Source: Amphiscolops sp. MND2022 (lineage: Eukaryota). From it: 64,000 nt of DNA. Positions 2,310-50,701 of the stretch are shown here, piece after piece. The DNA lies in the NCBI GenBank assembly GCA_964187785.1, contig OZ076409.1, positions 40,302,001 through 40,366,000 on the forward strand, written 5' to 3'. The notes beneath the pieces were generated by a model. It had not been told where the DNA came from and did no database searches. It was given only the letters and a program-made list of their open reading frames with translations. Made by a program: the position numbers and the translations under genes. Each line of letters begins with the position of its first letter. Within the stretch, counting starts at the first letter, position 1.

Positions 2310-2322
2310 TGGCGCAGTCAGC
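2310..2322 (+). promoter_or_regulatory. Primer-binding site, tRNA-Ser-like
   Basis: TGGCGCAGTCAGC abutting the LTR. Confidence 0.8.
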
Positions 2323-2328
2323 AATCTA

Positions 2329-3432: not shown

Positions 3433-3539
3433 TACGAACACACAAAGGAGACAACCAAAAGGGCAGAGAAGGATTTCGCCCTTGACCTTCCGATGCTCGT
3501 GGATGAAACAGCGAGGGACGTGAAGATCTTGAGTGCCAT

Positions 3540-26102: not shown

Positions 26103-27684
26103 GTAAGTTGCTTTTTGTTTCCTTGCCGTTTGGATCCCCAAAAACTTAGCTGAAATAATAATTAACGTTACAAGTGCGGAAAAATATTGCGCATTGAAAA
26201 CTGATTTGAAGACAAATGAAGCGACTTCAAATGTGATGTTGGCGTGAGAAACCCTCCAACATTATGGCTTCATCGATGCTTCATTTTAGACCAACTTACT
26301 ACGACTTGCTTTGGGCTCAACATAGGTAAAAAATAACATGGTTCTACAGTATCCAGCACTTTTTTTCCAACACTTCTCGTCTGTATTTGCGAGAACTCAG
26401 TGGTTTCTTAAGACAGTTAACTTACCACCATTGTTCCTTGAAGTCCGACCAGATCTTCGTTATAAATATACTTCGTCGTTTTGTTTGAATTTACTTGACA
26501 GGACTGATTGAATCGGCATACGGGCCGCACCGGACGTCAGCCTGAACTATTAGCAAGGCAAAACTGTTTTCCGAATTGTGTAATGAGTATGACAAAAAGC
26601 AAAGTAGAAGTTTGATCCTAAATAGTAGGAATTATATTTGTATTTTTCCTCAACATTTCATAAATAATTCTTTTTTAATAGCATTATAGGATTCGTTAAT
26701 GAGTTTATGGAAGATACTTTTGAGTCTTTGCTTGAGTTTTCGTCAAAGTCAACGACGATGATTTTAAAGAAACCAATGAATGAGTCATTGTTATACTGGA
26801 AAATCGTAGTAAAAAGTTGCAGTGATAAGTAACAGATTACCCTATATATTACAGCCAGCCCCATTTCACCTTCGTAAAACATGTATGCCTGGGTCCTATG
26901 TCCTCTACCGTGGGAAAGTTTCTGCTGCGCTCAAAAACATTTTGAGAATTTATAAAAAAGAATAAATCTCTTTGAAGATGAACGGTTCAGACAGAAGGCT
27001 GTCTATGCTGTTCTGTTTGCTTGTTAAAATATTGGGTTGGGCTTTGCTGGTTTGATCATTGTGTAATGTTTTTTGCTACTTCTCTTTCGCTGAAGTCGTC
27101 GTCTTCGTGGTGTATGTTTTCAACAGCTTCAATTGGTTGGAGGCGAAGAGCTGGAATTTTGAAAAATTGTTGTTTTTGTCTTGACTTTGTACTGTCGTGG
27201 CTGCTCTGTGTCGTTGTTGTCGAAAGCAGTTTAAAGTAAAAGTGCTGGCAGGTATTCTTTGATCAAACGGGTCTAAACATGGTCTGCAAATTGTTGGGCG
27301 TGAGTGTATCTGTATCGCAGACGTCGGTTGTTCAGGAGTGCTTCAATCCTTTTGAAGGTGTCATCGGTTTAGCGTCTGAGATCCAATGACCTAATAATGA
27401 GCGTTCTTGCAGGATCGTAAAAGGTCATGAATGAATCATTGTCGAACCGAAAAGTCGTAGTTGAAAATGTTGTAGTAAGTTGTCCAGAAAAGTAAGAAAA
27501 GTTATTACTTAGTTTTTTCAAACATTGAAAGCCGGAAAACTGCGACTAATGGCCGGAAAAAATGGTAAAAATGCGTGAGTGTCGGATTGCAAAAAGAATT
27601 CCCGGTTTTTACAACCGAATTTTTTCGACAGTGGTGTTAATTGCAATTAATTACTTTTGGTAGATTTATATTGAGCCAAAATTC

Positions 27685-28416
27685 TGTAACGACAGGCTCT
27701 CACCACTGTCGCCGTAACCATGAGAGTAAGAGGAACACATGATATGGGTATTTGCCCGGGACAGGCGCCCATGACCATGAGCTCATTTTGCCTCCTTCGG
27801 GTAAAAACTGTCCCGTCAGAGGAGGATTCCGCTTCTTGTGAAGTGCTCGCCGGCCTGATCCAGTCTGTAATTGCTATCAGTAACGCGAATTACGCTTTTT
27901 CTTCGAAACCAACGCTTAGATAGCCTTTAAAAACAGGTGAGGTGGAAAAGGAAAATCGTGTTCTCTTGTAGCTACAGAGGAAATCGAAATAAGTAGCTCA
28001 CGAGCTATTACCATGACAAAATACGCAATTTACTGCATAATTAGCACTTTTGGGGCAGCAATTAGCCTGGGACACAAGCACGGATGCTTGTTCAAGCTAG
28101 TTGACTCATTTTGGTGGTCACAACATATTGTAATGATCTGCTAAAGAAAGCACCGATGGGAACAGAGTTTAGTCCGTATCGGCCGAAATTTGAGTCTTTT
28201 TCTGACAGGTTTTGCGGATTCCTGTAGTCGTCTAGTTCGTAGTGGGTCTCTTCTGCTTCTCTCGCTCAAATCCTCTTCAATTTCGGGGACAGGTCCTTTG
28301 GTAAAGACACGGTATCCTTCAGCGGAATATGACTTTTCAGGGGAGGGCATCTAGTCCCTTGAACGAAAATTTCAAAAAAAATTTCGAATTCTCGGACTCG
28401 ATAAGTGATCGTTACA
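27685..28416 (-). repeat. 3' LTR of giant element
   Basis: Matches 46693-47424; preceded on minus strand by PPT-like GGGGAGTGA (28417-28425). Confidence 0.96.
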
Positions 28417-29344
28417 TCACTCCCCGGGGTCTATGCTTGACGTCCCCGTCAAGTGAGGGTAGGCGTCATCGAGTTCCTTGCCAGGTATCATCTCTAGGAG
28501 CTCATCTGCCGTCGCAAGCTGCATTGCATAGACTGTTTCGTCGTCGCGTCGTCCGGTTGACCATTGGAAGCGTTTTTGACCCAGCATTGCTGCATTTTGA
28601 TCAAAACTACTTACAGCTTCGTATACAAATTTAACACGGCAAATTTTTTTTATATCCCGTCGCGAGCTACTCGGGCTTTTAAAACTTCTTTTCGGCCTCT
28701 CAAAGTTCGGCCGTCCGTGTCAAAATCTGTTTTAAGGTCAACGACCTTCACATGACAAGTTAAACTTCTTTTCCGAAGCTCGGGAGCTTCGCGCTGCTTG
28801 GCGCTTGGTAAAAACATCTTTTTTAGCAGCTCCCATCAATTTAACAGATATAGTCAATTTTTATTTTAAAAAAAATTTTGTGAGACTCAATCTCAGTCCT
28901 TCTAAGTAACTCAAGGAAAACAACAGGTTAATGCTCAAAAGCTTTCATTTCTTTCTTTTCCTTTGTTCTCTTCTCTTCTTTTTCCGTCTTTCCAGACGTT
29001 ATCAAAAATCAATATCAAAACTAGTAACTAAAATGGGTGTAATAGCACCTGATGAATATGCTTGGGATGTGTACTATATACCCTCAAGCTAGTAACACTA
29101 ACTACAACGAAAATTATTGCACCGAAATGATACAGATGGGGAGGAAGAAGCCCGCGGGCTTCAACCTCGCTTCTTGGTTTCTGCACCGTGATTAATTGAT
29201 GTTTTCGTATACAACTGCAAAGTTCGTTACAATGTTCAAGCGTATCAACGACATCTGACAACAAAGCTTCGATAAAAGAGCTTAGTAGCGACATTTAAAG
29301 CATAACAGCAATTCTTAATTTAACGGTGATGTTTGGACTTCGCT

Positions 29345-32300
29345 TCATTGTGTGGCGGAGGAGTGGCGCGCCCTGGGCGAAGTGCTCTTCTTCTCTTCCA
29401 TCTCGGACAATGATCCTCTACGGACCGTGGCTTCTCGCAGTACTGGTCCAGAGGCGTTATGGGCAGTCTCCGGTGTATTGGGAGCGGCACTGGAACTGCA
29501 ACGGTCACTGGTCGTTGGTATTGGGGTGGATGCCTCAGGGGAATGCTCTTGTGCGGCATTAGATTCAGTGGCGTTGGTTGAGCTGGATGCGGGGACGTCA
29601 GCCGGAATCTGCACATCTAGTCGACTTGCATTGAATAGATGTGGCAAGTCGATCGGCCTGTTCCTTGTAGCGATGGGGCGCTTCTGCTTCGCGCTGATTT
29701 TACGGCGCAGGTCAGGTCTGCCCCAGAGCCCGCAGGCTCTGGACCAGTTGTCTCTATTTTCATGCTCGATTATTTGTCTTGAAGCTTCCCATTCTGGTCC
29801 CAGAGGATCACTCAGCAGCTCCATGATGTGATAGCAGGTTTCTGCTGGCATATCACTCCCCATGGTTACTCTGGCCTCAGGATTCCATACTGGCGAGATT
29901 TGTGGGGGTACGACTAACCCTTTTAGTCTTCCCTGACGTTCCTCCAAGGTGCGAGACATCCATACACCCAACTTGTAGTGATCCCTGTATGCATATTGCT
30001 CGTCAAACCCGCGTTCGATCATGCTGATAGGTTTGGCTCTGGCATAGCCTATTGGTCCTCGCCAATATCTCGCCGGGATCTTGATCAGCTGAAAATGGTA
30101 ATCGCGATTGGTGTGACCACCCATAGCTTGCACGCACTCAATCACATACTTCCGCAGGTGTGCGAAACTCCAGTTGAATCGGATTGGGATGCCCTTGTCA
30201 TCCAGAGGCGAGTTATACCAGTTTACTGGGCCATATTCTCGAGGGAGAGGGCAAGCCTTCTTCGTTCGAGCTTTCAGTATTCCCGATAGATTCTCATCCT
30301 GCTGGGTTTCATTTTTTGATCGTCGTATACATGCGGGGTACCCTCAAGTACAACCCACGTTCCAGCATTTGTTGATAGTTATGGGGCTTTACGTTCTTTA
30401 TAAATGTCAGGATGGACACCGATGGTGTTTCTGAGGCAAGTCGTAGGGGTTTAGTTGGGTATCGGAGTATCCCAGTCGGACCAAATATCGGAGTTAGCAC
30501 GGGTGCTAACACTGGTATTAAGTCTTCCACTTCGGACAGTGTGAAGTCCGCCAGCTGGTTAGGTGTAAGGAAGCCCGCCACCTCCGTCACCAATTGACGT
30601 CCGTCATAAAGTGGTTGATTCTTATCAACTCCAACAAAGAGTCCCGAAGAGAAGACTAAGCTACAGTAAATCCAATGGTGCAACGAAGTGATCATTTTCG
30701 CCAGGTGTGCGGGATAATCTTGTGCGTCCTTCTTCTGCAACAGTTCGGCTAGAGCAGTGAGTCCTTTGATGTCCCCACGCGACAACACCAGGTAAGAAAA
30801 CAACCATTCCAGGTTACTCTCTGTTATTAAGTCCGTCAGAATCATCATTGGACCCGCAACGAAACGCTTCTGACCAAAGGTCAGCATCAGGGCCAAAACT
30901 TCGTTCAGCTGCATGGCACCAATGATCTGGCTAATCTCGATGATTTGTTGCTCCTCGATTCCGAATTCCACGCGAGTTACATCTGGACTCCAGCCCAGCC
31001 CCAGACAGATCGCAAATTGATCGGTTGACATTCCAAGCTCTTTTGCTATATTGGCAATGGTGGTAGTCTGAAGTTGCTGGTACCACCCATCGTAGGTGCC
31101 ACTAAGGGCCTGGATCTCCGCTTGGGTCTCGCTCGTTAGTTTGGCGGTGATGTATCTCATGCCCGCAGACAGCTGGTCGATTGTGAGGTCTTGGGCGAAT
31201 TGAACTCGTGGGATCGCTCTTTCAATTTCTCTCTCGTTGGGCACTTTCCCCATCGCTGCAGTGACTTCCGCCAGGTCATCCTTTATCGAGGTTTTTCCAC
31301 CGGAGGAGCGCGCGCGCTCCATCCAGTTATGCATACGAATGGCTTCGCACTCACTTTTAGTAGGTTCTGGGAGGCGTCTCTCTCCTTCTTCGGTAAACAT
31401 TAACACAGCCATCCTGGTACCATGATCGAAGTAAACTGCGTCATCGATTGTCAGTTGTGCGTTTCCAGTTTTCTCGACGGATTGCAGCACTTTGGACACT
31501 GAAGCGATATACCCCATATATGATAGCCAAGAGGGGCGCAAATCGCTGCTACTGACACGTAGATTTGGCGCACAGATCGCGAAGTCCACTTCCCTGCTTT
31601 GACACACCTCAGTTACAAGGTAGACGAAACGTTGTAAGGCTGGATGCCATTTGCAGAAGCCAGGAGGTGTAACAAAGATCACCGGCACCTTCAATTTCCT
31701 CTTCAGAATATTCTGGGCCTTCTCCATAGCTCCCGCCAGATTGGTTAATGCATTACGAACTGTTGCTCGTTGTGCAGGAGTTGGATTCAGCATCTCCACA
31801 TTGACGATCTGAGTCATCAGACCTTCGCAGGCCAGGTGGTCGAAAACATTGCTGATGATAACCCTGCGCGGGGGTGGTTCCTTGTACGTCCCTGTCATCT
31901 CGGGGTCGAACATCGTGACCAGGACTTCAGCCATCTCGGGAATGCGGGATAGCGGCAGGGTGAAAACCATCACGTCTGAGAGCACATTGTCTATTGGAAT
32001 GTTTTTCAAGAATGTCGAGTCGATAAGTAAGGCGTAGCGCGCACGCTGCAACCTTTCTTTTGGCATGGGAAGCTGTGCCTCCAAGTCACGGGAATATCTG
32101 GGATTGACTTCATACGTTTCTTCTGCGCGGAGGAAGTACCTTTCTTCGAATTGCCCACGGAGGTCTATGTTAAGGGCATCCAGATAATTATCCTCCACGT
32201 TGGGCAGTATGTTCGTGGCCTTCCCCAACCATTGCGGCTCGTTCGTGGGGGTATGGTCCATGCGGAGTGGGCGAGTCATGAACACCAATACGTGGTCTTT

Positions 32301-33911
32301 CTTCAGCCTCGCGTGTTGTTCGTCGCTGGGAGGACACATGTTCTTTTCGAACAACCACTCTGGTGATATGATTACTGCCGATTCCCAGATACGCCTGGCG
32401 TCTTTCGTTACCAGACTACCCTTGGAGTTTTGCATCGGGCTCAAGTATGTCGGCTGTTTGGTGAACGTTCTTTTCGTTGGATGTTGGATCGCTTGCTTTC
32501 TGAGCGGCGTAGCCGTCGGTCCGCTGTTGGTCACCTTCAGGCCGGGATAATCATCCATCACATCCTCAACGGTTCTCTGCGCCTGGGGTGTCCCTTGGTA
32601 GCCGATTGTGGGTTTGCTTTGCTGCTGCTTTGACGACGATGGTTTGGGAATCGCCCTTTGTGCTAGCGATTCACGCGATGTCGGTTGTGAGGGTGGCAGT
32701 GGTTGCATTATTCCTTGTCCTTCAGTGGATTGGCTCGGTGGCGGCGAAGGAAGCACGGGTGCTTCCGACACCATTGTTTTTGTGTGATCAGATGCGTTGA
32801 CAGTCATGGGTACTTCTATGGATGCTGGCGTGGTTTTTTCGTTGGAGACTCTCTTATCCGGTGGTGGTTTACTCGACGGGCTGTCGCGAACAGCCATTGG
32901 CGGTATTGCACTTGTGCTTGCCCTTGTCGGTGAACGATCATTCCTTTTTCGGGAAGCAGGACGACGCTCTCCTCCCCCCTTGTGAGAAGATGAGGAGCGT
33001 GAGGATGAGCGACTGCGTTCCATAGTGACTGTGCGGGAATGTCCCGGTTGTTCAGACAGCGGGTTCACATGTGGAACAGTCAGTGCGGATGGCGCAGTGA
33101 GGGCACTCGTGTTCTGAATTGTGACTGTGGGAAGGGTTATTTGGCGTAACTCCGGCCAGCATCGCTCCATGGACGTCATAAAGTCAGAATAATGTGGGTC
33201 AATGGCGACAGCTTGCAAGGCTGAGATAACTGCCTGTTCAGCCAACGGTCTATTCGTCATATCAGGAGGCGCTGGTGCAGGCGGGCGCGCCTGAGAGCCC
33301 GGGGGCTCTCCGGCACGCGCGGCTGATTGAGATGCAGGTACCGGTGGTGGTGGAGGAGGGCAAGATGGAATCTGCAAAGAACGGGTCTGGTGGACGCCGC
33401 CACTGGGTAAACTATTGGAAATCGCAGCACGATCGTCAGTGAAGTGATGAGTCAAATCATGACCAAACCACACTCCCTCATGGAAGGTCATGGACCGCTG
33501 AAACCCAGGAAAACCAGACGTGATTGAGATGGTCAGCATTGGAGCTTGGGTCTGGGACTCCATCTGTGCAATTATCGCTGCCACTCCAGCCACAGTAGCG
33601 GATGATAGACCTTGGTCAAGGCGGTCGCGAATGAAAGCGACCTGAGATGTTCGCTGAACACGCGCAGTGTCATATATGCGCTGTCCCATTGCAGGTGATT
33701 CATTGGAACATCGTGGGGGTACTTCGTCAGCTTTGTCTCCGTGATTCATCACCAAGTCTCTGAAAGAGCGCAAGTTGACTGCGTGTTGATCAGTTGCAGT
33801 GCAATACATAAAATCACATTGGGGCAGTACCAAAGACAGGTAACCAGGTAGCGGAACTAATGACATAAGGATAAGTAAGGTAAAGCAAGAAATACACTCA
33901 TACTTCGTCAA
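29345..33911 (-). CDS. Large accessory ORF (~1500 aa when a 1-nt frameshift in an A6 run at 30312-30317 is corrected) with SGNH/GDSL-hydrolase-like domain
   Basis: ORFs 30309-33911 and 29345-30145 join via open sequence IKNETQQDENLSGILK...; ALLIDS, RVIISNVFDHL, DLRPSWLSY motifs at ~31480-32040; long Pro/Ser-rich linker. Confidence 0.7.
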
Positions 33912-33958
33912 CTCATTAAGCTTAACTAACTAAGAATACGAGAAAACAACAAAAAAAA

Positions 33959-36733
33959 TCACGGAAAGCTAGCGATGCTCGCGATGGAAACGTAAATGCG
34001 ATCATGTAATACCACAGACAAAGGTGTATCAGCGAACGCGTCCATTAAGCAGGTATAAAAATCAAAGAGATTACGTATCGGGCGCTCGGGATCGATGATA
34101 GCAAAATGAACCTCGGTGGCTTCTAGGCGTTCGAGTAACGTTTTCAAATATTCCAGACATACGAAAAGAGTATCAGCTATCATGGGGCAACGGGGCGTGG
34201 CGCGCGTAATCAATAAATGTATAGTTTGGGGTTTGTCGTTAATCATAGACACAGGGAGCGTCAATACATTTCCAACTTCCGGTCGGAGTCGAAATATGGT
34301 GTCGGCTCCATGCTCACGCATTACGTAGCGAAGGGCGGCAGAATTAGTCTCCAGATTCGCGGGGCAACACAAAACAACATTATGGGAAGCTTGTAGGAAA
34401 TCCGTGCTGGCATACTGTATGTAGTCGACCAGTTGAGGTCGCACGATTCCATGATATACCAGTTCTCGTCCAGGATCATTGGAGAGGCCATCATCGCAGG
34501 AAACCGGTAGACAGCCCTTAAGGGTTCCCAAGTCTTGCCACACCGAGCGAGGCAAGGATTGATTATCGATGTTCGCCCTGGACCATGTATCCAGCGCCTG
34601 CAAGGCAGACTGGAGTGAAGTGGGTCGTGGAAAAGAATGTGTCCACTCGTCGAGAAAGCGGATTCGAGGGAAACTCGATAAGATCGTGATGATAAGTTCC
34701 AACCACCACTCAAACTTGACTTTGCCGCGATACAAGTCGATGACGTGGAAACATGTTATTTTGTTAGGAGAGGCCATGGTTCGTAAACTCTCGAGACAAG
34801 TGTGCAGGGTTAAAGGGTCAACCAAATCAGAAGCGCGAGGGGCGGTGACCAATAGCCACCAATGAGTTGTTGGTTGATACACATCCCCTGGCGTTGCAAC
34901 GACATTATACCTATCATACAAGAGGTCAGCTGGAATGCAACGTACCATCTGAATGGGTTCTCGTTCATAGTTAAAGGGACCGAAAGCAATATTAGCGGGT
35001 AATGGAGGAACAGTAACAGGCAGTGTGAACTCAAGACCGCGAAGATCATAAGTCCATTCCTTGAATCTCGGACATGGGGCCTTCGCTACCGTCGAGCCTT
35101 TCATCTTGGATAGGATAAAGTCTATAGGATACGGGTTTTCACTGCGTTGTAGCCCAGTGTACGTCTTCTCGGCTCGAATGGTCAAACGGTCGACTGTGCC
35201 GTTTGGGAGTGGCGTCTCCTTCTCACGTGTCAGTAAGACTCCCCGGGGTCTAATTGGGAAGTCCGCGTGGACCAGATTATTGCATTTACAATCTCGTAGG
35301 CCACATGTTCCACAGCGGTATCTGGGGGCACGATTACGTCGTAGGCCATAGCCAGTATTAGGCAACTCCTGCGTTTGCGCTTGATCTGAGGTGACTGCTG
35401 CACTAGGAGCAGAAGAATCAGTATCCACAGATGGGGTATGATGAACACGGGTGGAGGCATTGGGTTCAGTACGTGTTGCTTGAGGTGGTCTGCCTCTGGG
35501 GCGTCCTCTCTTGCGAGCTCCCCTAACAGCGCCTCTTTGTCGATGGCCACGCGGCAGCGAGGCTCGCAGCCTTGCTCTGCCGGGCGGATGTCTTCGTGGT
35601 CTGCTGTGTTGATGTCCTCTGGGAACACCAGGAAGCTTTACTGCTATGGTTGTGTTGTTGGTTGGAATAACTATGGGGGGATTTAACTCTTCTTGACCAT
35701 CGGATATTAGCGATTCGTTACCATCATTCTCCAAGGGTGAATTCGAAACACTATCGTCAATCAATGGCCAAATGGGGAAATTACTCAGCATATCCGTGAG
35801 AGATGGGTTCGTTAACAGTGGAGCAGACGTACCTGCTAAAGAAATGCTAGCATTCTTGGTAGGTATCTGAGTAGGGGCAGATGCCTGAGTAGGAGGACTC
35901 TCGGTATTCTCAATGACGTCAGGTATTACTTCATTCTCTGAGAACAGAGCCTCCTTAGCAGGTAATGGCGAGATCGGCATTTCAAGGATAGGCACGGGTT
36001 CATCCACAAGTGACGACAGAATCACACTCTCGTCGGGATTCACCTGAGCGCTTGATAGAAGTACATCAGAGCGTTCGTCTTCAGATTCCGTTTCGGAATG
36101 ATCGAACTGTTGGTAATGTAGTCGACTGCCACCAGCGCGTGTACGAGTACGCAGTCGAGTATCCATCCAATGTCTTTGTCGGGAAGGCAAGGAGACGTTG
36201 CTGGCTTCCGACAGTGGTTCTTCCGCACGATAGGAAGGTTGTGATGCATCATCTCGAATATCTTCATGAGACTGCTCTGGGTCTGGATCCATAATGATAG
36301 CGACTTCACCGTAGTGCGCAGGGATTGCGGCCCACTCTGTTAGACCACCGTGATGCGGTTTTAGTCGTTCAAAATGTACCATTTGACCAGTGTCGAGTTG
36401 CATGTAGACGCGTCCTTCCTGTAACACTCGTGCTACTTTGTGAGGACCGCGCCAAGCTCTCATCAGTTTGGGAGATCCCTTTTGAGGAATGTATCGGCAG
36501 AAGACCCAAACAGGTTCGCCCACTTCATAAGCTTTAGCACGAATAGCTCGGTCGTATTTCAATTTCTGTCGTTGTTGGGCTTGATGTGTATTCCGACGAA
36601 CTAAGTCATGGATCTCTTGCTGTCGGGCCAAGACATGTTCCACATATGCCTCGTGCGATTCGAATGACTGAGTGGCGAATTCTGGGTACAGGAAGGTCAG
36701 GGGTATTGCTTTTTCCATGCCTCTCGTCAACAT
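33959..36733 (-). CDS. pol: Integrase C-terminus with long extension: GPY/F motif, AT-hook, CxxC cluster, two macrodomain-like repeats
   Basis: In frame with pol after a TAA at 36734-36736 (TGFSP*MLTRG); WRGPHKV and VHFERLKP integrase tail; RKRGRPRGRPP; RCGTCGLRDCKC; TARG1-like C-terminal repeats. Confidence 0.8.
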   Translation of the reverse strand: MLTRGMEKAIPLTFLYPEFATQSFESHEAYVEHVLARQQEIHDLVRRNTHQAQQRQKLKYDRAIRAKAYEVGEPVWVFCRYIPQKGSPKLMRAWRGPHKVARVLQEGRVYMQLDTGQMVHFERLKPHHGGLTEWAAIPAHYGEVAIIMDPDPEQSHEDIRDDASQPSYRAEEPLSEASNVSLPSRQRHWMDTRLRTRTRAGGSRLHYQQFDHSETESEDERSDVLLSSAQVNPDESVILSSLVDEPVPILEMPISPLPAKEALFSENEVIPDVIENTESPPTQASAPTQIPTKNASISLAGTSAPLLTNPSLTDMLSNFPIWPLIDDSVSNSPLENDGNESLISDGQEELNPPIVIPTNNTTIAVKLPGVPRGHQHSRPRRHPPGRARLRASLPRGHRQRGAVRGARKRGRPRGRPPQATRTEPNASTRVHHTPSVDTDSSAPSAAVTSDQAQTQELPNTGYGLRRNRAPRYRCGTCGLRDCKCNNLVHADFPIRPRGVLLTREKETPLPNGTVDRLTIRAEKTYTGLQRSENPYPIDFILSKMKGSTVAKAPCPRFKEWTYDLRGLEFTLPVTVPPLPANIAFGPFNYEREPIQMVRCIPADLLYDRYNVVATPGDVYQPTTHWWLLVTAPRASDLVDPLTLHTCLESLRTMASPNKITCFHVIDLYRGKVKFEWWLELIITILSSFPRIRFLDEWTHSFPRPTSLQSALQALDTWSRANIDNQSLPRSVWQDLGTLKGCLPVSCDDGLSNDPGRELVYHGIVRPQLVDYIQYASTDFLQASHNVVLCCPANLETNSAALRYVMREHGADTIFRLRPEVGNVLTLPVSMINDKPQTIHLLITRATPRCPMIADTLFVCLEYLKTLLERLEATEVHFAIIDPERPIRNLFDFYTCLMDAFADTPLSVVLHDRIYVSIASIASFP

Positions 36734-39700
36734 TTACGGGGAAAACCCAGTCGTTGCATGACGTGTAGAATTATACGCACCCATCACTTCATCTAAGTAT
36801 TGGTCCCAGTCTCGCATTCGTCGGGAGCAAAACACACGCAACAGGGTAAGCAATGTTCTATTTTGTCGTTCCACCAGTCCTTGAGTTTTAGGGTGACCAG
36901 CGGTTGAGGTAACCTTAGTCACCTGTGCTGCTCTCATGAACTCAGTAGATACTGCCGCGGTAAAGTTTGGAGCGTTGTCTGATTGCATCCTGGTTGGTGT
37001 ACCATGTCGGGCAAACCATTTTTGCAGCAATCTCTTCGAGGTGGTTGCTGCATCGTACTCGTCGTGGTTGCATGGTACTGCTTCCGCGAGTTTGGAAAAG
37101 TGATCAATGATGACCAGGATTCCAGTGTTGCCATCATCTGAGGGACAAATTTTCAAGTGATCATATTGAACCAACTCATTGAAGTAGCCACTCTGAATGT
37201 TCTTCAAGTGAAATCGTACATCACCAGGCTTATCGCGTACCTGTTGACAGGTTATGCATTGGCTAACGTATTGCCCAATGGTGCGGCGTATTCCTGGCCA
37301 GGTGTGGCGTTCTTGTATCCTTGCCAGCACCTTTGCGATACCCTGATGTCCCATCGCGTCGTGGGCCTTGAACAAGATCTCATGCTGGTATAATTGGGGC
37401 ATCACAATCATACATGGGCGTTCATGCAGTGCTCTCTGATTCTTGGGATATCTCACACACAACACGCCGTTGGCGTTAATCAGCAGGAGGTTCTTCTTCT
37501 GTTTGTAATAATTTTTGGCGAATGTGCGCACGTTCTCGGGAAATATGTCGTCATCTATTGATTCTTTCATTTCCAATTTCTTGATGGCCAAGATGTGGAC
37601 ATCGCGGTTTTGTGCCAAAAGGAGATCCTTCAATCCATGAACTGTATTTGCGTGTTCATGTAATTCCATCGATACACTTTCAACTACTAGTGCCATCTGC
37701 TTCACGTATTCGGGCGCGGTATCAGTCGCTAGCTTTTCCGCCCCAGTCAACGGGTAGGTCGTTCTTGATGGGACATTGGCAGCATGTGTGGGAAGCAAGT
37801 AGTCCCGTTGATATTCTTCGGTTAATTCTAGCCAATCCTCGGGATATTCGGGATAGAAATCTGCAGGCATCTCCAATTCGGGTTTGGGCAGTATAGGCAT
37901 AGGCGCTTTCATCGCTTTGTCGCGCATGATCGCACTTTGTCTACTTTGTCCGCTTCTCCGTGTGGGAGCGATCGTTGTGGTTTGAGGTGAGTGTTGGGTG
38001 GCCAATCTCTGCAAGTGCGTAGGCAGGTCGGGGTGATTCGGTATCACGCGTCCTTGAACATCAAACCATGGGGCTAGTGGGAGTCTGTCATATTCTTCTT
38101 GCGATAGGAAGTTCCATTTGTTAGCAATTGCTGGTAGATTTTGTAGCTGTTTCTCATGCTTTTTATAGTCGTTGGTTCGTTTACTAAGGCCATCGGCATT
38201 TCGATGTTGTGTTCGGGGTCGATGCACAATGCTGAAATGATATTTTTCTAGAGCCACTATCCATCGACCAATAATCGCCTGATCCATCGAATATGTCTTC
38301 AGCCATGAGAGGGCTTGATTATCGACTCTCAATGTAAATTTTCGGGGACAGAGATAGCTGTGGTTCTTCAAGATGAAGTAGTATGCAGCGTACATTTCCA
38401 GTTTCGGTGCTCCATACTTGGCTTGTGTAGAAGTCAACTTTTTGCTTCCGAACACAATTGGTCGTAATTTGCGGTTTTCGGGTGGTCCCTGCCATTGGTG
38501 AAGAATACCAGATATTGCTACCCCGCTGGCATCTGTGTCTAGCACGAATTCGCCTTCGGTGTCGGGTTGTGCCAAAGCGGTGGCTTCCATTAGTGCCACT
38601 TTGATGCCGTTGAAGGCTCGTTGCTGCTCCTCCCCCCACAAAAAGGAAGAGCCTGTACCCGTCATCGCGTGCAGAGGGGCAACCAATTTAGCATGCCAGG
38701 GGATAAAATCGCGGTAGTAGTTGGCAAAACCCAGAAAGCTCTGTAGTTCGGTTTTGGTGCGCGGAATATCCCAATCTCTCAATTTCGTGACAGCCTTAGG
38801 ATCTGGTTGGATACCATCTGCAGATACCACTCGACCCAAGTATTTGATTTCTGACTTCATGAAACCACATTTGGATACTCTCATCTTGAAACCGGCCTCG
38901 CGTAGACACTGGAATACTTCGCGAAGCCTATCCATATGGTCTTCGATGGTTTCAGTAGCTATCACGATGTCGTCGATATAGGCCATCACCATACTTCCTT
39001 CACGATTGACTATTCTTTGTAGCGCTCGCGCTATTGCCCGCTGAAATGTCGCTGATGCATTGCACATCCCAAAGGGCATGCGCCGCCATTCGAATAATCC
39101 AAGTTCACAAGCAAAGGCAGTCTTTTGACGATCAGCCTTTCGGACAGGAATTTGCCAGAATGCCCATGCTAAGTCGATGCTGGTATAGATCTTTGCCTTC
39201 CCTAATCGAGATAGACTCTCGTCAATTCGTGGTAGAGGATATGCATCCTTGATAGTCACTTCATTGAGTGGTCGAAAGTCACAACAGAATCGTAATTCAC
39301 CACTCTTCTTTTTGACCATGACAATACCACTCGCCCAAGGGGATAGAGAAGGTTGTATCATTCCCAAAGCTAGCAAATCACGAACTTCTTGATTGGCCCG
39401 TTCTGCTTTGTCAGGCGACATTCGTCGTGCACCTTCGCGGTGGGGTATAGCCCCTGGCTCTACTTCCACCGGGTGCTTAGCAATTTTACACTTACCAATG
39501 TCAGCCTTGTACTTCATGAACAAATCGTCAAACTCTTTTAAAAGTTTATCGAGCGTGTCGCTGGCGGCCGGACCCCATAAATTGCGTACTTCAACGAGTT
39601 GCGCTTCCGGGCCCGGTATTGGGGCCATTAGTGCCGGATCGGTGCGTTTTTTTATTTCGCGTTCTGACAAACCTAGCTCCGAGGGATCAGTAGAAGACAA

Positions 39701-40738
39701 AAACTCAAATTCAGATGAAGAGCTATATTCAGAAGAAGAATCAAGATTCATCTGTTCATATACTTTACAAACATAACTTGCATTTGACTGCTGAGTTTCA
39801 GTTGCTTGTCCGGGGACAACTTGGGGGATGGCTCTATGGACCATGGTCACGGGTATTGCGGTTCCCAAGAGGGTTCCCTTTTTGACCCGCTGGACGTTGC
39901 TAGTAAGGTTTCCTAAACTGATGTAAAGGAAGCCTGTTTCCCCCACGGTTGCCACAGTGTCTTCTAAAAATATGGCGTTTTTCAACATTCGATTAGGTGT
40001 TTGAAAATTGATTAAGACAGCACGGAATATGAAAGGTTCTAGATCACTTGCAAGTAACTTAGCGCGCAGTATGGCGCGTTCAAAGGGTTGCAAAACTATG
40101 TCCTCTGCCGTAGCTACCGACGAGCTAAGCGATTCATCACTTACCTGCGCATGGGCGTGATACCATACTGGTTCCGAGGGGGCTCGGACAATGACTTTCA
40201 TCGCAGTGAGGTCTACCAAGACCTGATAGGCTCGGAGGAAGTTCCTGCCTAGCAGAAAGTCTTCCACTCCCATAGCATCGTCAACCACTACGAAGTTAGT
40301 TTCCAACTCGTAACCTCCCAGCTGGAATTTGACTTTCTCTGCTAGACCAAAAGTTTTGATCGTCTTTCCATTCGCCGCGTACAAATCAATATTGTAGGGT
40401 CGCAGAAGTGTACCAGTGCGCACGGCGACACGGTTATAGGCCGAGAACGTGAGGATAGATACCCTCGATCCAGTGTCTATCAATCCGCGCAGTGGTATGG
40501 GTACATCATCAGGGACCATGAATGAAACTACGAGCGACGCACGCTCATCGATTCTCGCTTCACCAGATGGTTCTTGAGCATCAATATTGTAGCAGCGTAG
40601 CTCTCGAGGTCCCAAGCAAATTCCAGGAGGAAACGCATCAGTTATTACAGTCGCTCCAAAACGCATGTCGACGCCATCAATGCAAACTTTAACTGGAACA
40701 GGAGAATAGGCATGATAGGTTGAAGTGACTCCCTTGAC
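36734..40738 (-). CDS. pol: pol: aspartic protease, dUTPase-like relic, reverse transcriptase, RNase H, integrase core
   Basis: LIDTGS, FLLGRNFL, LRFCCDFRPLN, MPFGMCNA, YIDD, TDASG, NADGLS, H-x3-GH...CxxC, QYDH, SDNA, GLVERQNRTL. Confidence 0.96.
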   Translation of the reverse strand, partial: VKGVTSTYHAYSPVPVKVCIDGVDMRFGATVITDAFPPGICLGPRELRCYNIDAQEPSGEARIDERASLVVSFMVPDDVPIPLRGLIDTGSRVSILTFSAYNRVAVRTGTLLRPYNIDLYAANGKTIKTFGLAEKVKFQLGGYELETNFVVVDDAMGVEDFLLGRNFLRAYQVLVDLTAMKVIVRAPSEPVWYHAHAQVSDESLSSSVATAEDIVLQPFERAILRAKLLASDLEPFIFRAVLINFQTPNRMLKNAIFLEDTVATVGETGFLYISLGNLTSNVQRVKKGTLLGTAIPVTMVHRAIPQVVPGQATETQQSNASYVCKVYEQMNLDSSSEYSSSSEFEFLSSTDPSELGLSEREIKKRTDPALMAPIPGPEAQLVEVRNLWGPAASDTLDKLLKEFDDLFMKYKADIGKCKIAKHPVEVEPGAIPHREGARRMSPDKAERANQEVRDLLALGMIQPSLSPWASGIVMVKKKSGELRFCCDFRPLNEVTIKDAYPLPRIDESLSRLGKAKIYTSIDLAWAFWQIPVRKADRQKTAFACELGLFEWRRMPFGMCNASATFQRAIARALQRIVNREGSMVMAYIDDIVIATETIEDHMDRLREVFQCLREAGFKMRVSKCGFMKSEIKYLGRVVSADGIQPDPKAVTKLRDWDIPRTKTELQSFLGFANYYRDFIPWHAKLVAPLHAMTGTGSSFLWGEEQQRAFNGIKVALMEATALAQPDTEGEFVLDTDASGVAISGILHQWQGPPENRKLRPIVFGSKKLTSTQAKYGAPKLEMYAAYYFILKNHSYLCPRKFTLRVDNQALSWLKTYSMDQAIIGRWIVALEKYHFSIVHRPRTQHRNADGLSKRTNDYKKHEKQLQNLPAIANKWNFLSQEEYDRLPLAPWFDVQGRVIPNHPDLPTHLQRLATQHSPQTTTIAPTRRSGQSRQSAIMRDKAMKAPMPILPKPELEMPADFYPEYPEDWLELTEEYQRDYLLPTHAANVPSRTTYPLTGAEKLATDTAPEYVKQMALVVESVSMELHEHANTVHGLKDLLLAQNRDVHILAIKKLEMKESIDDDIFPENVRTFAKNYYKQKKNLLLINANGVLCVRYPKNQRALHERPCMIVMPQLYQHEILFKAHDAMGHQGIAKVLARIQERHTWPGIRRTIGQYVSQCITCQQVRDKPGDVRFHLKNIQSGYFNELVQYDHLKICPSDDGNTGILVIIDHFSKLAEAVPCNHDEYDAATTSKRLLQKWFARHGTPTRMQSDNAPNFTAAVSTEFMRAAQVTKVTSTAGHPKTQGLVERQNRTLLTLLRVFCSRRMRDWDQYLDEVMGAYNSTRHATTGFSP

Positions 40739-43700
40739 TTACCACTCTTCGGGCTGAGGTAGAGTCAATTGCTGATAATTTTCATTGGTAGTCATCTCTT
40801 CGATCAAAGCGTCGATGGTGAGTTCTGGGCGTGTTTCCCTCTCAATAGCCAGTAGCAATCTGGCAGACATTATCGTGCGTCCAGAAGGGTCGAAAATAGT
40901 TGGCTCTGGACTCGTCTGGATTTGAATTTTACCGCACGTAACGGTAAGAGAGGTTGCCACATGAACGGCTTCAGCTGGGCGTAACGTGAGAACCATTTCA
41001 CTATCGCTCAATGTCTGAGGGGTTGATGGCTGTGCAGCCCAGAGGCTGTAGGCCAAATCTTCATGTATTGGAACGTTTTGGCAATGTGATGCTGAGTGTT
41101 CAGTCATACCACAATTGACACAGAACATAGGACCGGAACATGCCGAGGCCACATTACTTTCGCAAAGATTTACTCGTTCGTTTGGCGCAGCGCGAGCAAT
41201 GGGTTTCCTTGCTTGATCCTTATTTGGGCATTCCCGCGCGAAGTGACCGGGTAATCCACAATTGAAGCATGCTCCTTGGGTAACTATCCTCGCTGGTTGT
41301 TGGGGCGGTGCAGCTTGTTGTACCGACGCTGGAGCTGGTGGGGCCATTTGGGGCTTTGCCTCGTGTTGTTGTCCTTGATTTGGAGGGAGCACATTTTGTG
41401 GCAGACCTGGTGCTGGATGAACCACTTTTCCTGGCACAAAAGGGTGAGGCCTTGATCTCATCGCATATCTAGGATCATAGGGCTTTGACGTTGTTGGACG
41501 GTGTCGCTGCAATTGCCGCGTGGTGAATCTCAAGGACTCCACAGTGGGCGGTTCAGTCAGATACGTCTCCGCCGCGTACACCACAGCCAATTCTTGTCGC
41601 AGTGTAGGGTCGTTCACACCATCTATGAAGCGTTGCAGGATTTCGTAACGACGGGTACTGATAGGCTCATCTGGAAAACCTTGGGTGCGCAGGCCTTCTA
41701 ATGCGTCCAAAAACTGCATCCAATCCTCCTTCTCCTGTTGAACGCGAGACATAAAGGTCTGCCGGACGTGCATACGGTTGCCACCTGTCCCGAATCTGCT
41801 GGCTAGGAGGGCGAACACCTTGTCTGGTGTATCTCGTTCAGGTTCTGACTTATTGATAATGTAGTTTCTTGCTTCTCCTTCTAGGTGATCAATTATTGCC
41901 CAGGCCTTGTCGACGTTTGATGATTTTGCATGTACCCTTTCCACCTTTCCAGGAAGCGTTTCATCAGTGGAAGCCACCCGTCAACGGTTCCGTCTTTTGT
42001 ACCTTTATACACTGTAGGACGGACTCTCGTCTGATCACGATTAGCAATTAATGGCGCCAGTTCTTTGGACATTGCCTTTGATATCGCTTCAGTGAATCTG
42101 AGTTGTTCCGGTGATATTGGTGCTTCTTCAGTTGTTGCCGGTGGTGGAACACTGCTACCTCGTGTAGAGTTAATTGAATCATCGGTGTTCTCCGAGATGA
42201 TCACTTCTCTGCGTCGGGTGCTGCTTGCGCACGGATTGCCCGGGGGCAATCCAGTGTCCGCAGTTTGGAATTCTGCATTTGACTCTCCCAAAGTCGCGTT
42301 TGCTGTTTGGAAGGTACTCGTGGTGTTGGTCAATTCGATGATGCACGTGGGTTCTCGTAGACCTGTGATACCCATGCTCAAAGTTTCAAGGGTTATTGCT
42401 TCATACGTTGGTTCCTTTTCGTGAGACTTCGTTATTGGCGGGATAAACTCCGTTTGTGCTGGAAGGATAAGCTTCGTGGACGTTGATACAGCTTCTCCAC
42501 TCGAAACAAGGGGTTGAGGTAGGGGTGCGTATCTCGCCATAGGTTGTTTGGAACCTGAGGGTTTCGTCGTGGTGATTATACTCTCTTTTGGTTTGAGTGA
42601 AACACTCTTCACAGGCTTTGGTAGGGACATGTCAGTCTCCTGCAATAGTTCTTTGATGGTGTTGTTTGGTAGAGTTGATTGAGGCTGGACATTTTTTAGC
42701 GCAGTGCCCATCGCCTGTATTTGCGAGCACACCTCCTGAATTTGGGCTTCCATACGTACCTCTCTTTGGGCCATCATATCCTTCATTTCAGCCATTCGAT
42801 AACCCATGGCATCCATGCGAGCAGCTTGTACTTCCTGTCCTTGCATTTGTCGCTCAGTGGAAGTCCTTAACTCACATTGCACAGCTTCAATCTCCTCCAC
42901 AATTGCCTGATGTTCTCTATCGCACCTCGCCTTGCGCTCAGATAGTTGGGAAGCAGCTTGCTTCACACCAGCTTGGGCTTCCAGCAGGGCTTTACGCGCC
43001 TTTGCTGCTTCATGTACAGCTCGGTATGCTGAAGATCGACCAGACACAGCTTTTGATGAAGGTGAGGACGAGCGCGAGTCGCCGTGAGGTCCTGTAGTGC
43101 CAGTCTGTGCTAGTAGAGCTGGAGGCCGTATTTGTCTACTTTTTCCCGATGGCCGGGGTGCAGTGGCTTCTTGCAAGCGCGCTCTGGCATAATTCATACC
43201 CCCGACATAAGACATTTGTTGCAATATCTCTGCCGTGTTCGCAGTGCTCTCGCTTGCCATGCTGGGAGCCTTGAATTGTCCAGTAGCATTCAAGCAACTC
43301 ATTTCAGCTTCTTCCTCAGCATTTGTTCTGTTGGAGTTGGGCCATGTTCCTGCTTCGTCAGTACCGAAAGGTGTGACAGCTACTTTGGTCAGTTCTTGCA
43401 ACCATTTGGACGTGTGCGCCTGACTTCCTGTTTCGTCGGCTGATCCCCCGATATCGTCTGCCGTCCTGGTGACCTGTTTGGTCTGGTATTCTTCTGATGC
43501 GTTGTCTGACATAGGGTCTGAAAAATCGGGTTCCATAACAAAACTGTCATCAGTTGGCCAATCTTCCTCCCTGGGGTCTGAGGTTAGGTCTGATATTGCA
43601 CTGAGGTTTGTCTCGCACGCCACGGGTTCTGGTGTTTTCAGTGTTTTGGCGTGTAGTGAGGCAGCTTCCCTACCCCTCTTTGAAAGATGTGAGTGCCGAT

Positions 43701-43767
43701 GGGTGTTCGAACGACTTAATGTCTTTGTGATCGAATTCCAAAGACTGCGGAAGTTGTTGTTTTTCAT
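40739..43767 (-). CDS. gag: gag (~1006 aa after removing an 8-bp duplication at 41936-41951)
   Basis: Capsid-like YKGTKDGTVDGWL..MKRFLERVHAK..KAWAIIDHLEGEAR; knuckles CFNCGLPGHFAREC and CVNCGMTEHSASHC; long coiled-coil N-terminal extension. Confidence 0.88.
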
Positions 43768-46659
43768 GACTTAGCCTATTTCGGAATAGTCGAAATTCGA
43801 TGAGGGAGTCGCTTCGGCGTGAAACGTTTACTGCGCGTTAATACCGTTGCGTGGGGTCGAAAACCGTGCGTTTAGGGTTCACGAGGCAACTATGTCACAC
43901 ACACTTAAGTTCTTTTGATAGTTTCAAAGATTTTTGGAGTCTTTCAAAATTCACTCATCGTCTGGTACGTGATGTTCGATTGTATAAAGTACTTGAAAAA
44001 TTATCACGATTCACATTAAGTGATGGACTCACTAACATGCGTTTAGACAAGGGAGTTTTTGCAAATTTTTTACATGGAAGACCGGGTTTCGTCCCACTTT
44101 TCTAAGTTTCGCCTCGGTGGAGACTTGAGCCAGAATGATGATACGCACGTCTCGAATGGGTCGAAACCACATCTAATGGTCGTAGCGAGTTCAAACTTAC
44201 TCAAGCAGTTGTTACCAAACCACAAGCTCAGAAAATGAGCTCAGATTGATGCTACCTTTTCGCTAAGACAATTATGCGACGTTTACAACAAATCTTGAAT
44301 TTTCTCGGAGAGTACCAAAAATATATAAGTGGCTCAAATTCGTTCCTGAAGAATAGGATCTGGCTCAAAATTGACCAGAGGATCTTACACACATATAGGT
44401 ACACGGAATTGAGCACCGATTTGAGCTCCGAGGGTTGTGCACTGTTTTGCCTTGGTATAGACGTGCGGTACACCTATGTCTCAGTAGGAGTCAAAATGCA
44501 CGCTTATTATACAATTTCTAGGCACCAGTATGAGTTAGCGGTTCGGTATTCTCGCTAACAATGCAACAACTAGCACAAGTCACGATGGTGGGCTGCAATT
44601 TATCCCCACTTTTCCAATAAGGTGTTCAGGCATTTCTGAAAAATTTCGAAAAATTTGCCTTTTTGCACCTCTTTTTGAGCAGTACTTTTCAGTCAATTTT
44701 TCAATAAATACAACACTGATTGGCTCGAAACTTAGTAGGCGCTGTCAGTGGGCGCCCACAATGCTGGTTCAATGGTCCGATGAAAGCTCGCGAGCTTTTC
44801 TAGGGTTTCGACTGAGTTCAGACACTATTTCAGCAACAGTCCTTTTTTTGACACTTTTTTCACAAATAGGCTAAGAGGGTCGACACTACAAACGTTACGG
44901 CAGGCAAAATAAGATCAACGTGTTGCCCCACTAGTCACAGCACTGCCACAAGTCCTCAATTAGCCGCGCCTGTTAGGTTTGAGGCACTGTCGGTCTTATA
45001 GTTTTGGAAATTTTCGGCTAGGTCAGCTCAATCTGATGTCAAAACGTCAGAGAGCTTTTCTCAACTTTGGTTAGCGCTAGGCTCACCAAATTTTCGGCAC
45101 TAGTATTATTTTTGTGGTGGTTACGAAAATGCAACCAGTTTTTAGCTAGGGTTCGGGAATCTATGACCCGACCCTAACAATTGGACAGTCCGGTTTTGTG
45201 GAAATTTGGTCAGATTCAATGCGTTTTTCCACTTTTCTCAGCACTGAAAAGGAATTTTTTGACGCGGTTTTCAGCACTATGCGTTATTTTTTATGTAAAA
45301 ACAGAAAATGAGAGCTGGGAAGCTCCTAGCTAACAAAAAGAGTGTCCAGGGGGTTTTAATTATATATGCGGACACTCCTGAAACTAACTAAAAATCAACG
45401 TTTTTCAACTTTTCTTCACACTGAAAAAGAATTTTGGGGTGCAGTCTTCACTCTTGACCGTTAAATCTTTCGAATAAACTGGAAGCAACAGTCCGCGGAC
45501 TGTTCTTGGTATAGGAATGTTAGTCAATGATCGGTTCAAGTTCCATTCAAGAATACTATTGGAAAACTTCAAAATTGCAATTTCTGTAGGTTTTTGTGGC
45601 AGGTAGTGACAATAATTACCGAAACAGGCAGCTCTAGGTACCGGCTGGTGTGCCCTGACATAATTGTGGCCCAGTGGGGATGTTTGGAAGTTCCAACATC
45701 AATCTCCCCACTACTAGAAGTGCTTAATTTTTCCGAAACGGGGTTTTCTCTCACAAGATTCGCACTAAGTGCTTTTTTGGGCAACTTTGAGCAGTTGGCC
45801 CTGGTTTTTGTGAACTCATTAGAGTTCTGAGCTACTTTTATTTAATTTCTGCAAATGTGTGGCTGGCACCAAGAGCGCTCGCGCTCATGTAGGTGTTTCG
45901 CCTCAAAGTGGCCAAATTTGGCACTTTTCGTCGAAAATACATGAAAAAACGCAATTTTTGCACAAAACAGGTGCAAATGCACACGCCTATTTGCAGAAAG
46001 CTCGTAAGAACATCGGCAAGTGATTACACATAAAATTTTGAGCAATCAAAAAAAATTTTTCAACCTGACTCAAAGTATTCATACAACCTGGATCGACGAG
46101 TTGTATCTTTCCGTTCCTTTTACTCGTCACCCAGAACAGTTAGAGACAAACGGGTTGCATCTCTAGATAGGTCAGTGTTTGTAGTACGTTGCCACTAAAT
46201 TTCGTTTTTCTGGGTAGCCTGTACGAGAAATGGGATAGGCGAGTCGTACAACTCCATTCCGGCAGGTTGTAAGGTACTTTTGAGCAAGGATCATCCTCTT
46301 CTCAACACTCGCTTCATTGGTCATAAAAAGCTGAAAAAGGCTGGAAAATACCTGTTAACACCTCTAGCAGCCTTTTGACGGCTTGCTAGACCAATTTTAG
46401 AGAGTGACCCGTTAAGAGGGTTGGTTATTTCGACTGTTACCTGTTAACTACTAAAAAGCTTCAGAATTACAACATACAGCGCTTTTTCACTAAATTTACC
46501 TTTAACCACCAGGCATAAAGCCTTCAATAATGTACATACAGGGTAAAAACATAGAAAACTCTGCTTCTGTCTTCTCCTCGTCTGAGTCGGGTCGTACTTG
46601 GCGTCAATCACCAGAGGGTCGGCTCTTTTAAAACCATTAAGGGAAGCACTTCGAAGCGA

Positions 46660-46676
46660 TCCCTCTGTGGTCGCCA
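46660..46676 (-). promoter_or_regulatory. Primer-binding site, tRNA-Arg-like
   Basis: Minus strand TGGCGACCACAGAGGGA, 16 nt downstream of the 5' LTR end. Confidence 0.7.
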
Positions 46677-46692: not shown

Positions 46693-47424
46693 TGTAACGA
46701 CAGGCTCTCACCACTGTCGCCGTAACCGTGAGAGTAAGAGGAACACATGATATGGGTATTTGCCCGGGACAGGCGCCCATGACCATGAGCTCATTTTGCC
46801 TCCTTCGGGTAAAAACTGTCCCGTCAGAGGAGGATTCCGCTTCTTGTGAAGTGCTCGCCGGCCTGATCCAGACTGTAATTGCTATCAGTAACGCGAATTA
46901 CGCTTTTTCTTCGAAACCAACGCTTAGATAGCCTTTAAAAACAGGTGAGGTGGAAAAGGAAAATCGTGTTCTCTTGTAGCTACAGAGGAAATCGAAATAA
47001 GTAGCTCACGAGCTATTACCACGACAAAATACGCAATTTACTGCATAATTAGCACTTTTGGGGCAGCAATTAGCCTGGGACACAAGCACGGATGCTTGTT
47101 CAAGCTAGTTGACTCATTTTGGTGGTCACAACATATTGTAATGATCTGCTAAAGAAAGCACCGATGGGAACAGAGTTTAGTCCGTATCGGCCGAAATTTG
47201 AGTCTTTTTCTGACAGGTTTTGCGGATTCCTGTAGTCGTCTAGTTCGTAGTGGGTCTCTTCTGCTTCTCTCGCTCAAATCCTCTTCAATTTCGGGGACAG
47301 GTCCTTTGGTAAAGACACGGTATCCTTCAGCGGAATATGACTTTTCAGGGAAGGGCATCTAGTCCCTTGAACGAAATTTTCAAAAAAAATTTCGAATTCT
47401 CGGACTCGATAAGTGATCGTTACA
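46693..47424 (-). repeat. 5' LTR of giant element
   Basis: Matches 27685-28416 at ~99%. Confidence 0.96.
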
Positions 47425-50400: not shown

Positions 50401-50701
50401 CGGAAATTTTTGGAATTTTGGTCATTTAATGGGTCAATTTTCTCTGACAAAACCGCATTTATCTCTTGCTAGAAAACTATTGGACATCGTGCAACGTTTG
50501 CAACATTCTAATTTGCGATGTTTATCAAAAAATTGAAAAAACGCATGAAAACGGTAAAAATTGAGAAATTTTGGAGTTTTTGTTTTTTTTTCGCGGCCAG
50601 TTTGAGATACACTATGGTATCAAAAAGCTACGTACACCAACATTTTTTTAAAAAAACTCAGAACAGTAAAATTTGAAACAACTGTTGAAACAAATAATAA
50701 A

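Follow-up and report, generated by a model that had tools for sequence, protein, structure and literature searches.

An LTR retrotransposon family that apparently carries tandem TARG1-like pseudo-macrodomains on its integrase tail

The site and the efficiency of retroelement insertion depend on the integrase tail, for which few accessory folds are known. The window analysed here, 64,000 nucleotides of the Amphiscolops sp. MND2022 genome (assembly GCA_964187785.1, contig OZ076409.1, positions 40,302,001 to 40,366,000 of the forward strand), contains on its minus strand a long terminal repeat (LTR) retrotransposon of 19,740 bp. Downstream of the integrase (IN) in its Pol polyprotein lie two related repeats, D1 and D2, which a sequence-only reading had assigned to the TARG1/OARD1-like macrodomains, and which we follow here through sibling copies, structure prediction, profile comparison and insertion sites. 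The tandem pseudo-macrodomain integrase tail is real, conserved and apparently undescribed. We propose, with moderate confidence, that D1-D2 are conserved pseudo-macrodomains that now serve the integrase tail as a module for docking a putative host protein partner.

The integrase tail and its fusion to Pol

Both repeats are contained in a minus-strand open reading frame (ORF) of 924 amino acids, counted from stop to stop (33959-36733), and their limits fall within a few codons of those first proposed. Behind the integrase SH3-like domain the tail runs through a low-complexity linker of ~330 amino acids with conserved islands, an AT-hook-like RGRP motif, a YxLR motif with a cysteine box, and finally D1-spacer-D2; the names AT-hook-like, GPY/F-like and cysteine box were assigned by eye. 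In window coordinates the parts are as follows.

36356..36523, minus strand: integrase SH3-like C-terminal domain with a GPY/F-like motif (WRGPH), seen by eye with no Pfam match; ratio of nonsynonymous to synonymous substitution rates (dN/dS) 0.011
35798..35833, minus strand: short conserved GTSAPLLTNPSL-type motif within the low-complexity linker
35483..35509, minus strand: AT-hook-like RGRP motif, present in subfamilies A-F, no Pfam match
35282..35350, minus strand: YxLR motif and CxxC-x4-CxC cysteine box
34646..35005, minus strand: D1, TARG1-like pseudo-macrodomain in shortened form, without loop 1 and the helix after it; K84 to A/S, G123 to Y
34433..34645, minus strand: spacer of 71 amino acids, two predicted helices at low confidence, without macro similarity
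33998..34432, minus strand: D2, full-length TARG1-like pseudo-macrodomain; K84 to R, G43 to A, G121 to D, G123 to E, D125 to P, D20 kept

The conserved short islands at 35798-35833 and 36152-36172 (minus strand) in the linker are candidate host-factor-binding motifs.

The genome was searched with the 363-amino-acid tail, giving 4,416 first-look candidates; open frames of 3,100-3,300 amino acids contain many of the 112 that were scored. All four fully fetched siblings of subfamilies A-D, and both of subfamily F, have a single open frame of 3,049-3,310 amino acids that includes reverse transcriptase (RT), RNase H (RH), IN, D1 and D2, and a seventh fetched sibling, L124, has a frame broken upstream. 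The element family is large and recently active. In the window copy, an in-frame stop at 36734-36736 cuts the D1-D2 frame from the integrase core. The proposed fusion is upheld by the siblings, which carry the pair as a C-terminal fusion to Pol. It needs correcting in that the window copy has the stop and that the domains, instead of adjoining the core, lie ~450 amino acids downstream of the SH3/GPY-F region.

Fold and homology of D1 and D2

With a 52-row alignment, AlphaFold2 predicted the D1-D2 region as two alpha/beta units joined by a poorly placed spacer, at a mean predicted local distance difference test score (pLDDT) of 69 (mostly 78-93 in D2) and a predicted template modelling score (pTM) of 0.47; without the alignment, pLDDT was only 38.7. 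The best Foldseek matches of this model were PARP14 macro1+2 (expect value (E) 9e-9), to which the two-domain model aligns over 15..354, followed by TARG1 (E 4e-8). In VIA-align comparisons, the D2 model matched TARG1 at Z 16.9-17.9 with root mean squared deviations (rmsd) of 2.0-2.7 Å over 136-140 residues (best Z 17.9, 2.4 Å over 140), above DarG (Z 15.6) and Poa1p (Z 13.5). A profile of the alignment, searched against Protein Data Bank (PDB) sequences, found TARG1 chains exclusively, all weakly (5 of 5 rows, E 0.23-0.29). Other searches gave little: Pfam returned no Macro match for D1 or D2 in the window ORFs or in any of the 52 alignment rows, single-sequence phmmer found nothing relevant in the PDB, separate D1 and D2 profiles found no macro match among PDB sequences, and Atlas gave only a weak lead for the whole region (0.87, Macro 14%). 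The predicted model identifies D2 as a homologue of the TARG1/OARD1-type macrodomains with the macro alpha/beta fold.

Since the structure-search matches were taken up by D2, D1, modelled only together with D2, was assigned through profile comparison. Compared by hhalign, D1 and D2 matched at 83.5% (E 8e-6) and, in a second comparison, at 88% (E 3e-6). Against 119 canonical TARG1-like transposon domains, D1 reached 80% (E 1.4e-5) with a score of 35.7, compared with a maximum of 20.5 over 40 column shuffles and 9.9 for the reversed profile; against a shallower profile of nine rows it reached 4.5% only, and Atlas gave a weak lead to Macro clusters (0.88). D1 is short of ~15-23 residues spanning loop 1 and the next helix. 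By profile comparison with these controls, D1 is identified as a shortened paralogue of D2 and a macrodomain homologue. The initial assignment of both repeats is thereby upheld, for D2 by AlphaFold2, Foldseek and VIA-align and for D1 by profile homology.

Conservation and selection

The pair is maintained in six subfamilies, down to ~40% identity. When intact copies of subfamily A are compared with those of B, dN/dS comes to 0.033 for D1, 0.047 for D2, 0.116 for the linker, 0.010 for RT and 0.006-0.025 for the enzymes; owing to near-saturation of the synonymous rate (dS), the D1 and D2 values are to be taken as below ~0.1, and the remaining three pairs are mostly saturated. These ratios point to purifying selection on both D1 and D2. 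In intact siblings the region is coding, as one open frame with dN/dS of ~0.03-0.05 near dS saturation, and a non-coding artefact is rejected on the open frame together with the purifying selection. Within subfamily A, at the 27 of 30 loci that align without gaps, singleton changes comprise 81 nonsynonymous, 39 synonymous and 3 stop changes, and shared changes comprise 4 nonsynonymous and 6 synonymous; the changes private to these copies look neutral. One public protein, P0171, is just 35% identical to anything among the scored matches of the genome, so the pair probably also exists outside it.

A replaced ADP-ribose pocket

Residues are numbered as in TARG1, in which we take D125 to be the second residue of the catalytic dyad and D20 to be the aspartate that contacts adenine. 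In D2, K84 is replaced by R in 128 of 135 rows, G43 by A in 151 of 162, G121 by D in 100 of 104, G123 by E in 91 of 104 and D125 by P in 78 of 101. In D1, K84 is replaced by A or S (167 of 176 rows), G121 by D (176 of 186), G123 by Y (161 of 185) and D125 by G (172 of 184). The substitutions look alike in a set thinned at 80% identity. The canonical transposon set, taken from public sequences, by comparison keeps the TK motif in 111 of 119 domains and GxGxD in 106 of 119. Both repeats have D-x-x-R where GCGL stands in canonical domains, so the change in loop 2 probably preceded the duplication. The repeats also differ in charge: isoelectric points (pI) are 5.9 for D1 and 5.2 for D2, compared with 7.9-9.9 for nine canonical transposon domains, and D1-D2 together contain 29 K+R and 38 D+E (pI 5.6).

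K84 is the catalytic lysine of TARG1 according to the available text of PMC8501950, and PMC5928194 reports that G123E, G43E and I44E abolish both ADP-ribose binding and activity. The features of an active TARG1-type hydrolase are missing, with R and P at the K84 and D125 positions of D2 and A and G at those of D1; so are those of ADP-ribose binding, with the glycine-rich loops 1 (G43/I44) and 2 (G121-G123) replaced, or loop 1 missing in D1. An active ADP-ribosylhydrolase is rejected, as the catalytic Lys84 is gone from both repeats. Judged from these residues, D1 and D2 likely neither remove nor bind ADP-ribose. Loss of the catalytic lysine and of the GCGLD loop had been noticed in the original reading and is confirmed here.

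Target-site duplications and insertion pattern

Target-site duplications could be read in subfamilies A, C and F (loci including L155-L184, L205-L234 and L247-L252), those of B and D copies being unreadable. They measure 3 bp in 7 of 7 pairs of subfamily A, plus one further pair and three solo LTRs, in 11 of 13 pairs of subfamily C and in 2 of 2 of subfamily F. Four readable duplications of elements with canonical macrodomains, read by eye, measure 5 bp (L105) or 4 bp (L108, L114, L115). LTR retrotransposons other than Troyka make duplications of 4-6 bp, as far as the accessible text of PMC12440569 goes. Elements with TG..CA ends and a 3-bp duplication would escape annotation tools that assume 4-6 bp.

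The distribution of insertions was assessed with 90 of the 112 scored matches, all subfamily A/B copies on 11 chromosomes, with C5, C10 and small contigs left out. They are evenly spread (Kolmogorov–Smirnov p 0.39; variance 0.46 and mean 0.54 in 5-Mb bins), in a coarse test with which a fine-scale chromatin preference is still compatible. A target repeat common to the insertion junctions was sought and matched in just 4 of 63 flanks, in two of which the match was trivial (self or tandem). In 41 of the 63 flanks of subfamilies A and C, the sixth base counted outward from the LTR is T, which amounts to a weak and symmetric preference in the target.

Single TARG1-like domains in related lineages

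When the genome was searched for Pfam Macro, three host-like genes came up together with 21 weaker matches; of the latter, 20 are TARG1-like and mostly lie in long frames. These TARG1-like stretches belong to other LTR lineages, each with one motif-intact domain, at four other positions in the polyprotein (PR, protease).

After IN: L105, L110
Between RNase H and IN: L108, L114, L115
Between PR and RT: L109
After Gag-PR: L112, outside the RT/RH comparison

Where they could be compared, these lineages are 24-35% identical to the window family over RT/RH, and their domains have TK and GCGxD intact; the domain of L052 matches TARG1 at E 2e-30. A tree of RT/RH with 18 rows and without named references has branches too long to place the window family among the canonical-macro lineages; its nearest rows outside the family are 34-37% identical. 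The TARG1-like fold is a recurrent Gypsy cargo in this genome, and the window family is its degenerate, duplicated case. L105 and L110 also show weak dUTPase matches.

No host TARG1 gene was found among the scored matches, which transposon copies filled. In five public proteins (P0383, P0388, P0396, P0398 and P0403) a TARG1-like domain occurs together with a BRCT domain of DNA ligase III type, and three of the five have ligase domains as well; such proteins are a possible cellular source of the fold. The host-like gene L033 is nearest macroH2A (E 3e-40), which fits an animal host with ADP-ribose-reading chromatin, and L031 and L032 are, by eye, two MacroD-like host exons.

A putative docking module and its alternatives

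In the model that we propose, an ancestor of the family would have acquired a canonical TARG1-like domain such as other Gypsy lineages in the genome still carry. Loop 2 would have been altered from GCGL to D-x-x-R, probably before the domain was duplicated, and D1 would subsequently have lost loop 1. The tail, with its linker motifs, AT-hook-like motif, cysteine box and D1-D2, would remain attached to the integrase after maturation and tether the pre-integration complex to a basic protein of the host, for example a chromatin or nuclear-import factor, which would raise the efficiency of integration without limiting insertion to one chromosomal region. Tandem macro folds that fail to bind ADP-ribose have a precedent in the SARS-unique domain (SUD), as the available text of PMC2674928 describes.

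Several points weigh against this docking role. The element protease could cleave D1-D2 from the integrase. D20 is kept in D2 (155 of 170 rows; the D1 position is mostly Asn, in 119 of 155), and together with the near-invariant Arg at K84 could point to a remodelled nucleotide site; the mapping of TARG1 residues throughout comes from sequence and profile alignments and the end-register of the structural match, not from a residue-level superposition. The selection estimate comes from one pair near dS saturation (proportion of synonymous differences, pS, 0.70-0.74; 160 and 241 of 300 bootstrap replicates finite). Most public homologues are apparently of the same species, one being 100% identical, so row counts are not independent events.

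An unlikely alternative is that D1-D2 are a counter-defence factor with no role in integration, which would use a protein surface to bind a host restriction protein such as a PARP or a silencing factor, perhaps once freed from the polyprotein. D1 and D2 do change about ten times faster than RT (nonsynonymous rate 0.10 versus 0.010), with identities between subfamilies A and C of 45-67% as against 93% for RT; the long linker could hide a cleavage site; and the presence of TARG1-like domains at four other polyprotein positions elsewhere suggests an original use independent of the integrase. Tested over whole domains, however, dN/dS is far below 1 and shows no trace of an arms race, and in each of the six subfamilies examined the pair keeps its place after the integrase, behind the AT-hook-like motif.

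It had first been suggested that the domains read ADP-ribose, steering integration to PARylated chromatin, or act as decoys against ADP-ribosylation. That D2, or D1 and D2 together, still reads ADP-ribose or poly(ADP-ribose) in either way is improbable, as both ideas need the ADP-ribose pocket. The TARG1 fold predicted for D2, its conserved D20 and Arg, and a tandem reader module, that of PARP14, as the best Foldseek match speak for it. Against it stand the exchange of G123 for E or Y, of G121 for D and of G43 for A, or the loop deletion, together with the acidic composition, the binding-dead state of TARG1 G123E in the part of PMC5928194 consulted, and the even spread of the 90 copies, which show no megabase-scale clustering.

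Somewhat more remote is binding of RNA or DNA outside the pocket, in packaging of the element RNA or at G-quadruplexes, after the manner of SUD and TARG1. By the available portions of the two papers, TARG1 G123E retains RNA binding (PMC5928194) and SUD binds G-quadruplexes (PMC2674928), and a Y-R-G-K stretch is conserved in D1; those cases nevertheless use basic patches, and D1-D2 have the acidic excess given above, unlike the basic canonical domains.

Normally it is the integrase core and SH3 that determine the cut stagger, which counts against the least probable alternative, that D1-D2 form a structural part of the intasome (in oligomerization or target-DNA bending) and contribute to the 3-bp stagger. 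Although 3 bp is found in every readable tandem-domain subfamily and 4-5 bp in the canonical-macro elements, stagger and macro pair constitute a single co-occurrence because they belong to one lineage, and Troyka makes 3-bp duplications too, the word 'macro' being absent from the accessible text of the paper that describes its domains (PMC12440569).

The host element and other features of the window

The two LTRs of the window element are 99.3% identical at 732 bp each and enclose an 18.3-kb interior, in which Pfam matches to the window ORFs (zinc knuckle, protease, RT, RNase H and integrase) stand in Gypsy order.

46693..47424, minus strand: 5' LTR, 732 bp, TG..CA ends and a short inverted terminal repeat
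27685..28416, minus strand: 3' LTR, pairing with the 5' LTR
27682..27684 (plus strand) on the left and 47425-47427 on the right: 3-bp target-site duplication
46660..46676, minus strand: primer-binding-site-like stretch ~15 nt inside the 5' LTR end, by eye
28417..28428, minus strand: polypurine-tract-like stretch adjoining the 3' LTR, by eye
41893..43770, minus strand: N-terminal part of Gag; frame break near 41893-41980 in the window copy, one open frame in siblings
40739..41980, minus strand: capsid-like part of Gag (PF00098, E 8e-7) with a CX2CX4HX4C zinc knuckle; terminal in-frame stop in the window copy
36734..40738, minus strand: Pol with protease, RT, RNase H, integrase zinc finger and core (PF13975, PF00078, PF17917/17919, PF17921, PF00665)
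29345..33929, minus strand: second sense ORF of ~1,400-1,500 amino acids; two frames in the window copy, with a break near 30309-30343

The window copy is damaged, by the breaks near 41893-41980 and 30309-30343 and by in-frame stops at 40739-40741 and 36734-36736. The second sense ORF gave no significant match in Pfam and PDB searches, scored 0.2% against the macro profile as a negative control, and is kept across subfamilies (32% identity to subfamily F over 665 amino acids); its middle presumably resembles an SGNH-type alpha/beta domain, by eye.

Elsewhere in the window, 53500-64000 is a tandem array of eight copies of ~1,340-bp units, ~94% identical, and 49600-52900 holds two blocks of degenerate ~185-bp tandem repeats with a 30-bp inverted repeat at 50607/52302. 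Decayed pieces of another LTR element, with Gag, zinc knuckle, protease and integrase-like motifs recognized by eye, lie at 2278-5136 (plus strand), and an old 71-73% match to part of the LTR of the window element, at 21487-21577, is probably a relic of a related LTR.

Comparison with known systems

The literature search found no paper on macrodomains in Gypsy polyproteins, within a scope outside Repbase, GyDB, subscription journals and supplements; in the available portions of PMC13524379, PMC12440569, PMC5408684 and PMC12859917, a look-up of 'macro' gave nothing relevant.

The element has the marks of Ty3/Gypsy (Metaviridae) in its TG..CA LTRs, PR-RT-RH-IN order, CX2CX4HX4C knuckle and GPY/F-like motif, and departs from them in its duplication of 3 bp where the norm is 4-6 bp (according to the available text of PMC12440569). 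It shares with Troyka, as the same text describes it, the 3-bp duplication and a single Gag-Pol frame; Troyka, however, has CG..CG ends, LTRs of 100-400 bp, an interior below 7.7 kb, a CX2CX8-10HX4C knuckle and no GPF/Y (PMC12440569), as against TG..CA ends, a 732-bp LTR, an 18.3-kb interior, a CX2CX4HX4C knuckle and a GPY/F-like motif here. Membership of Troyka is rejected, as the CG..CG termini and extended knuckle are lacking, the GPY/F-like motif is present and only the duplication agrees. We suggest, tentatively and as a possibility we hold to be doubtful, that the family is a new lineage of giant LTR retrotransposons with TG..CA ends and, following Troyka, the second with a 3-bp stagger. 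Its tandem pseudo-macrodomain would be a working part of the integration complex and a new class of integrase accessory domain derived from an eraser of ADP-ribose, and neighbouring Gypsy lineages of the genome would still have the ancestral enzyme intact.

Chromovirus integrases carry C-terminal chromodomains, a reader-type fold on a Gypsy element. The analogy drawn to them in the sequence-only reading is fair for the position on the integrase tail, which is shared; the fold differs, insertions of the window family show no regional clustering, and the ligand is probably a protein, not ADP-ribose.

TARG1/OARD1 (C6orf130; PDB 2L8R, 4J5R) and the DarG macrodomain (5M3I) are like D2 in predicted fold (Z 15-18, rmsd 2.0-3.0 Å), in the order of elements and in the D20 and D37 positions, and unlike it in that identity is 14-17% and D2 has K84, D125 and both glycine loops replaced and is acidic, tandem and fused to a retrotransposon. 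Live and dead TARG1-like versions in one genome allow a direct comparison on whether ADP-ribosylation restricts animal retrotransposons.

Capture of a macrodomain by an LTR retroelement is shared with fish epsilon-like endogenous retroviruses, which have macro-domain ORFs (Basta et al. 2009, as summarized in the accessible part of the review PMC4977317); those are Retroviridae with the domain in additional ORFs, whereas the window family is of Metaviridae type, with a tandem, degenerate pair C-terminal to the integrase.

SUD-N/SUD-M of coronavirus nsp3 likewise place tandem macro folds in a viral-type polyprotein, the failure to bind ADP-ribose being demonstrated there, in the available text of PMC2674928, and predicted here. 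SUD is not TARG1-like and has lysine patches for G-quadruplexes (same text, PMC2674928), whereas D1-D2 are acidic and lie in a reverse-transcribing element. If the docking model is true, integrase tails would gain a new accessory fold in this conserved pair of dead macrodomains, and viral-type polyproteins a second case, after coronavirus SUD, of ADP-ribose folds put to another use.

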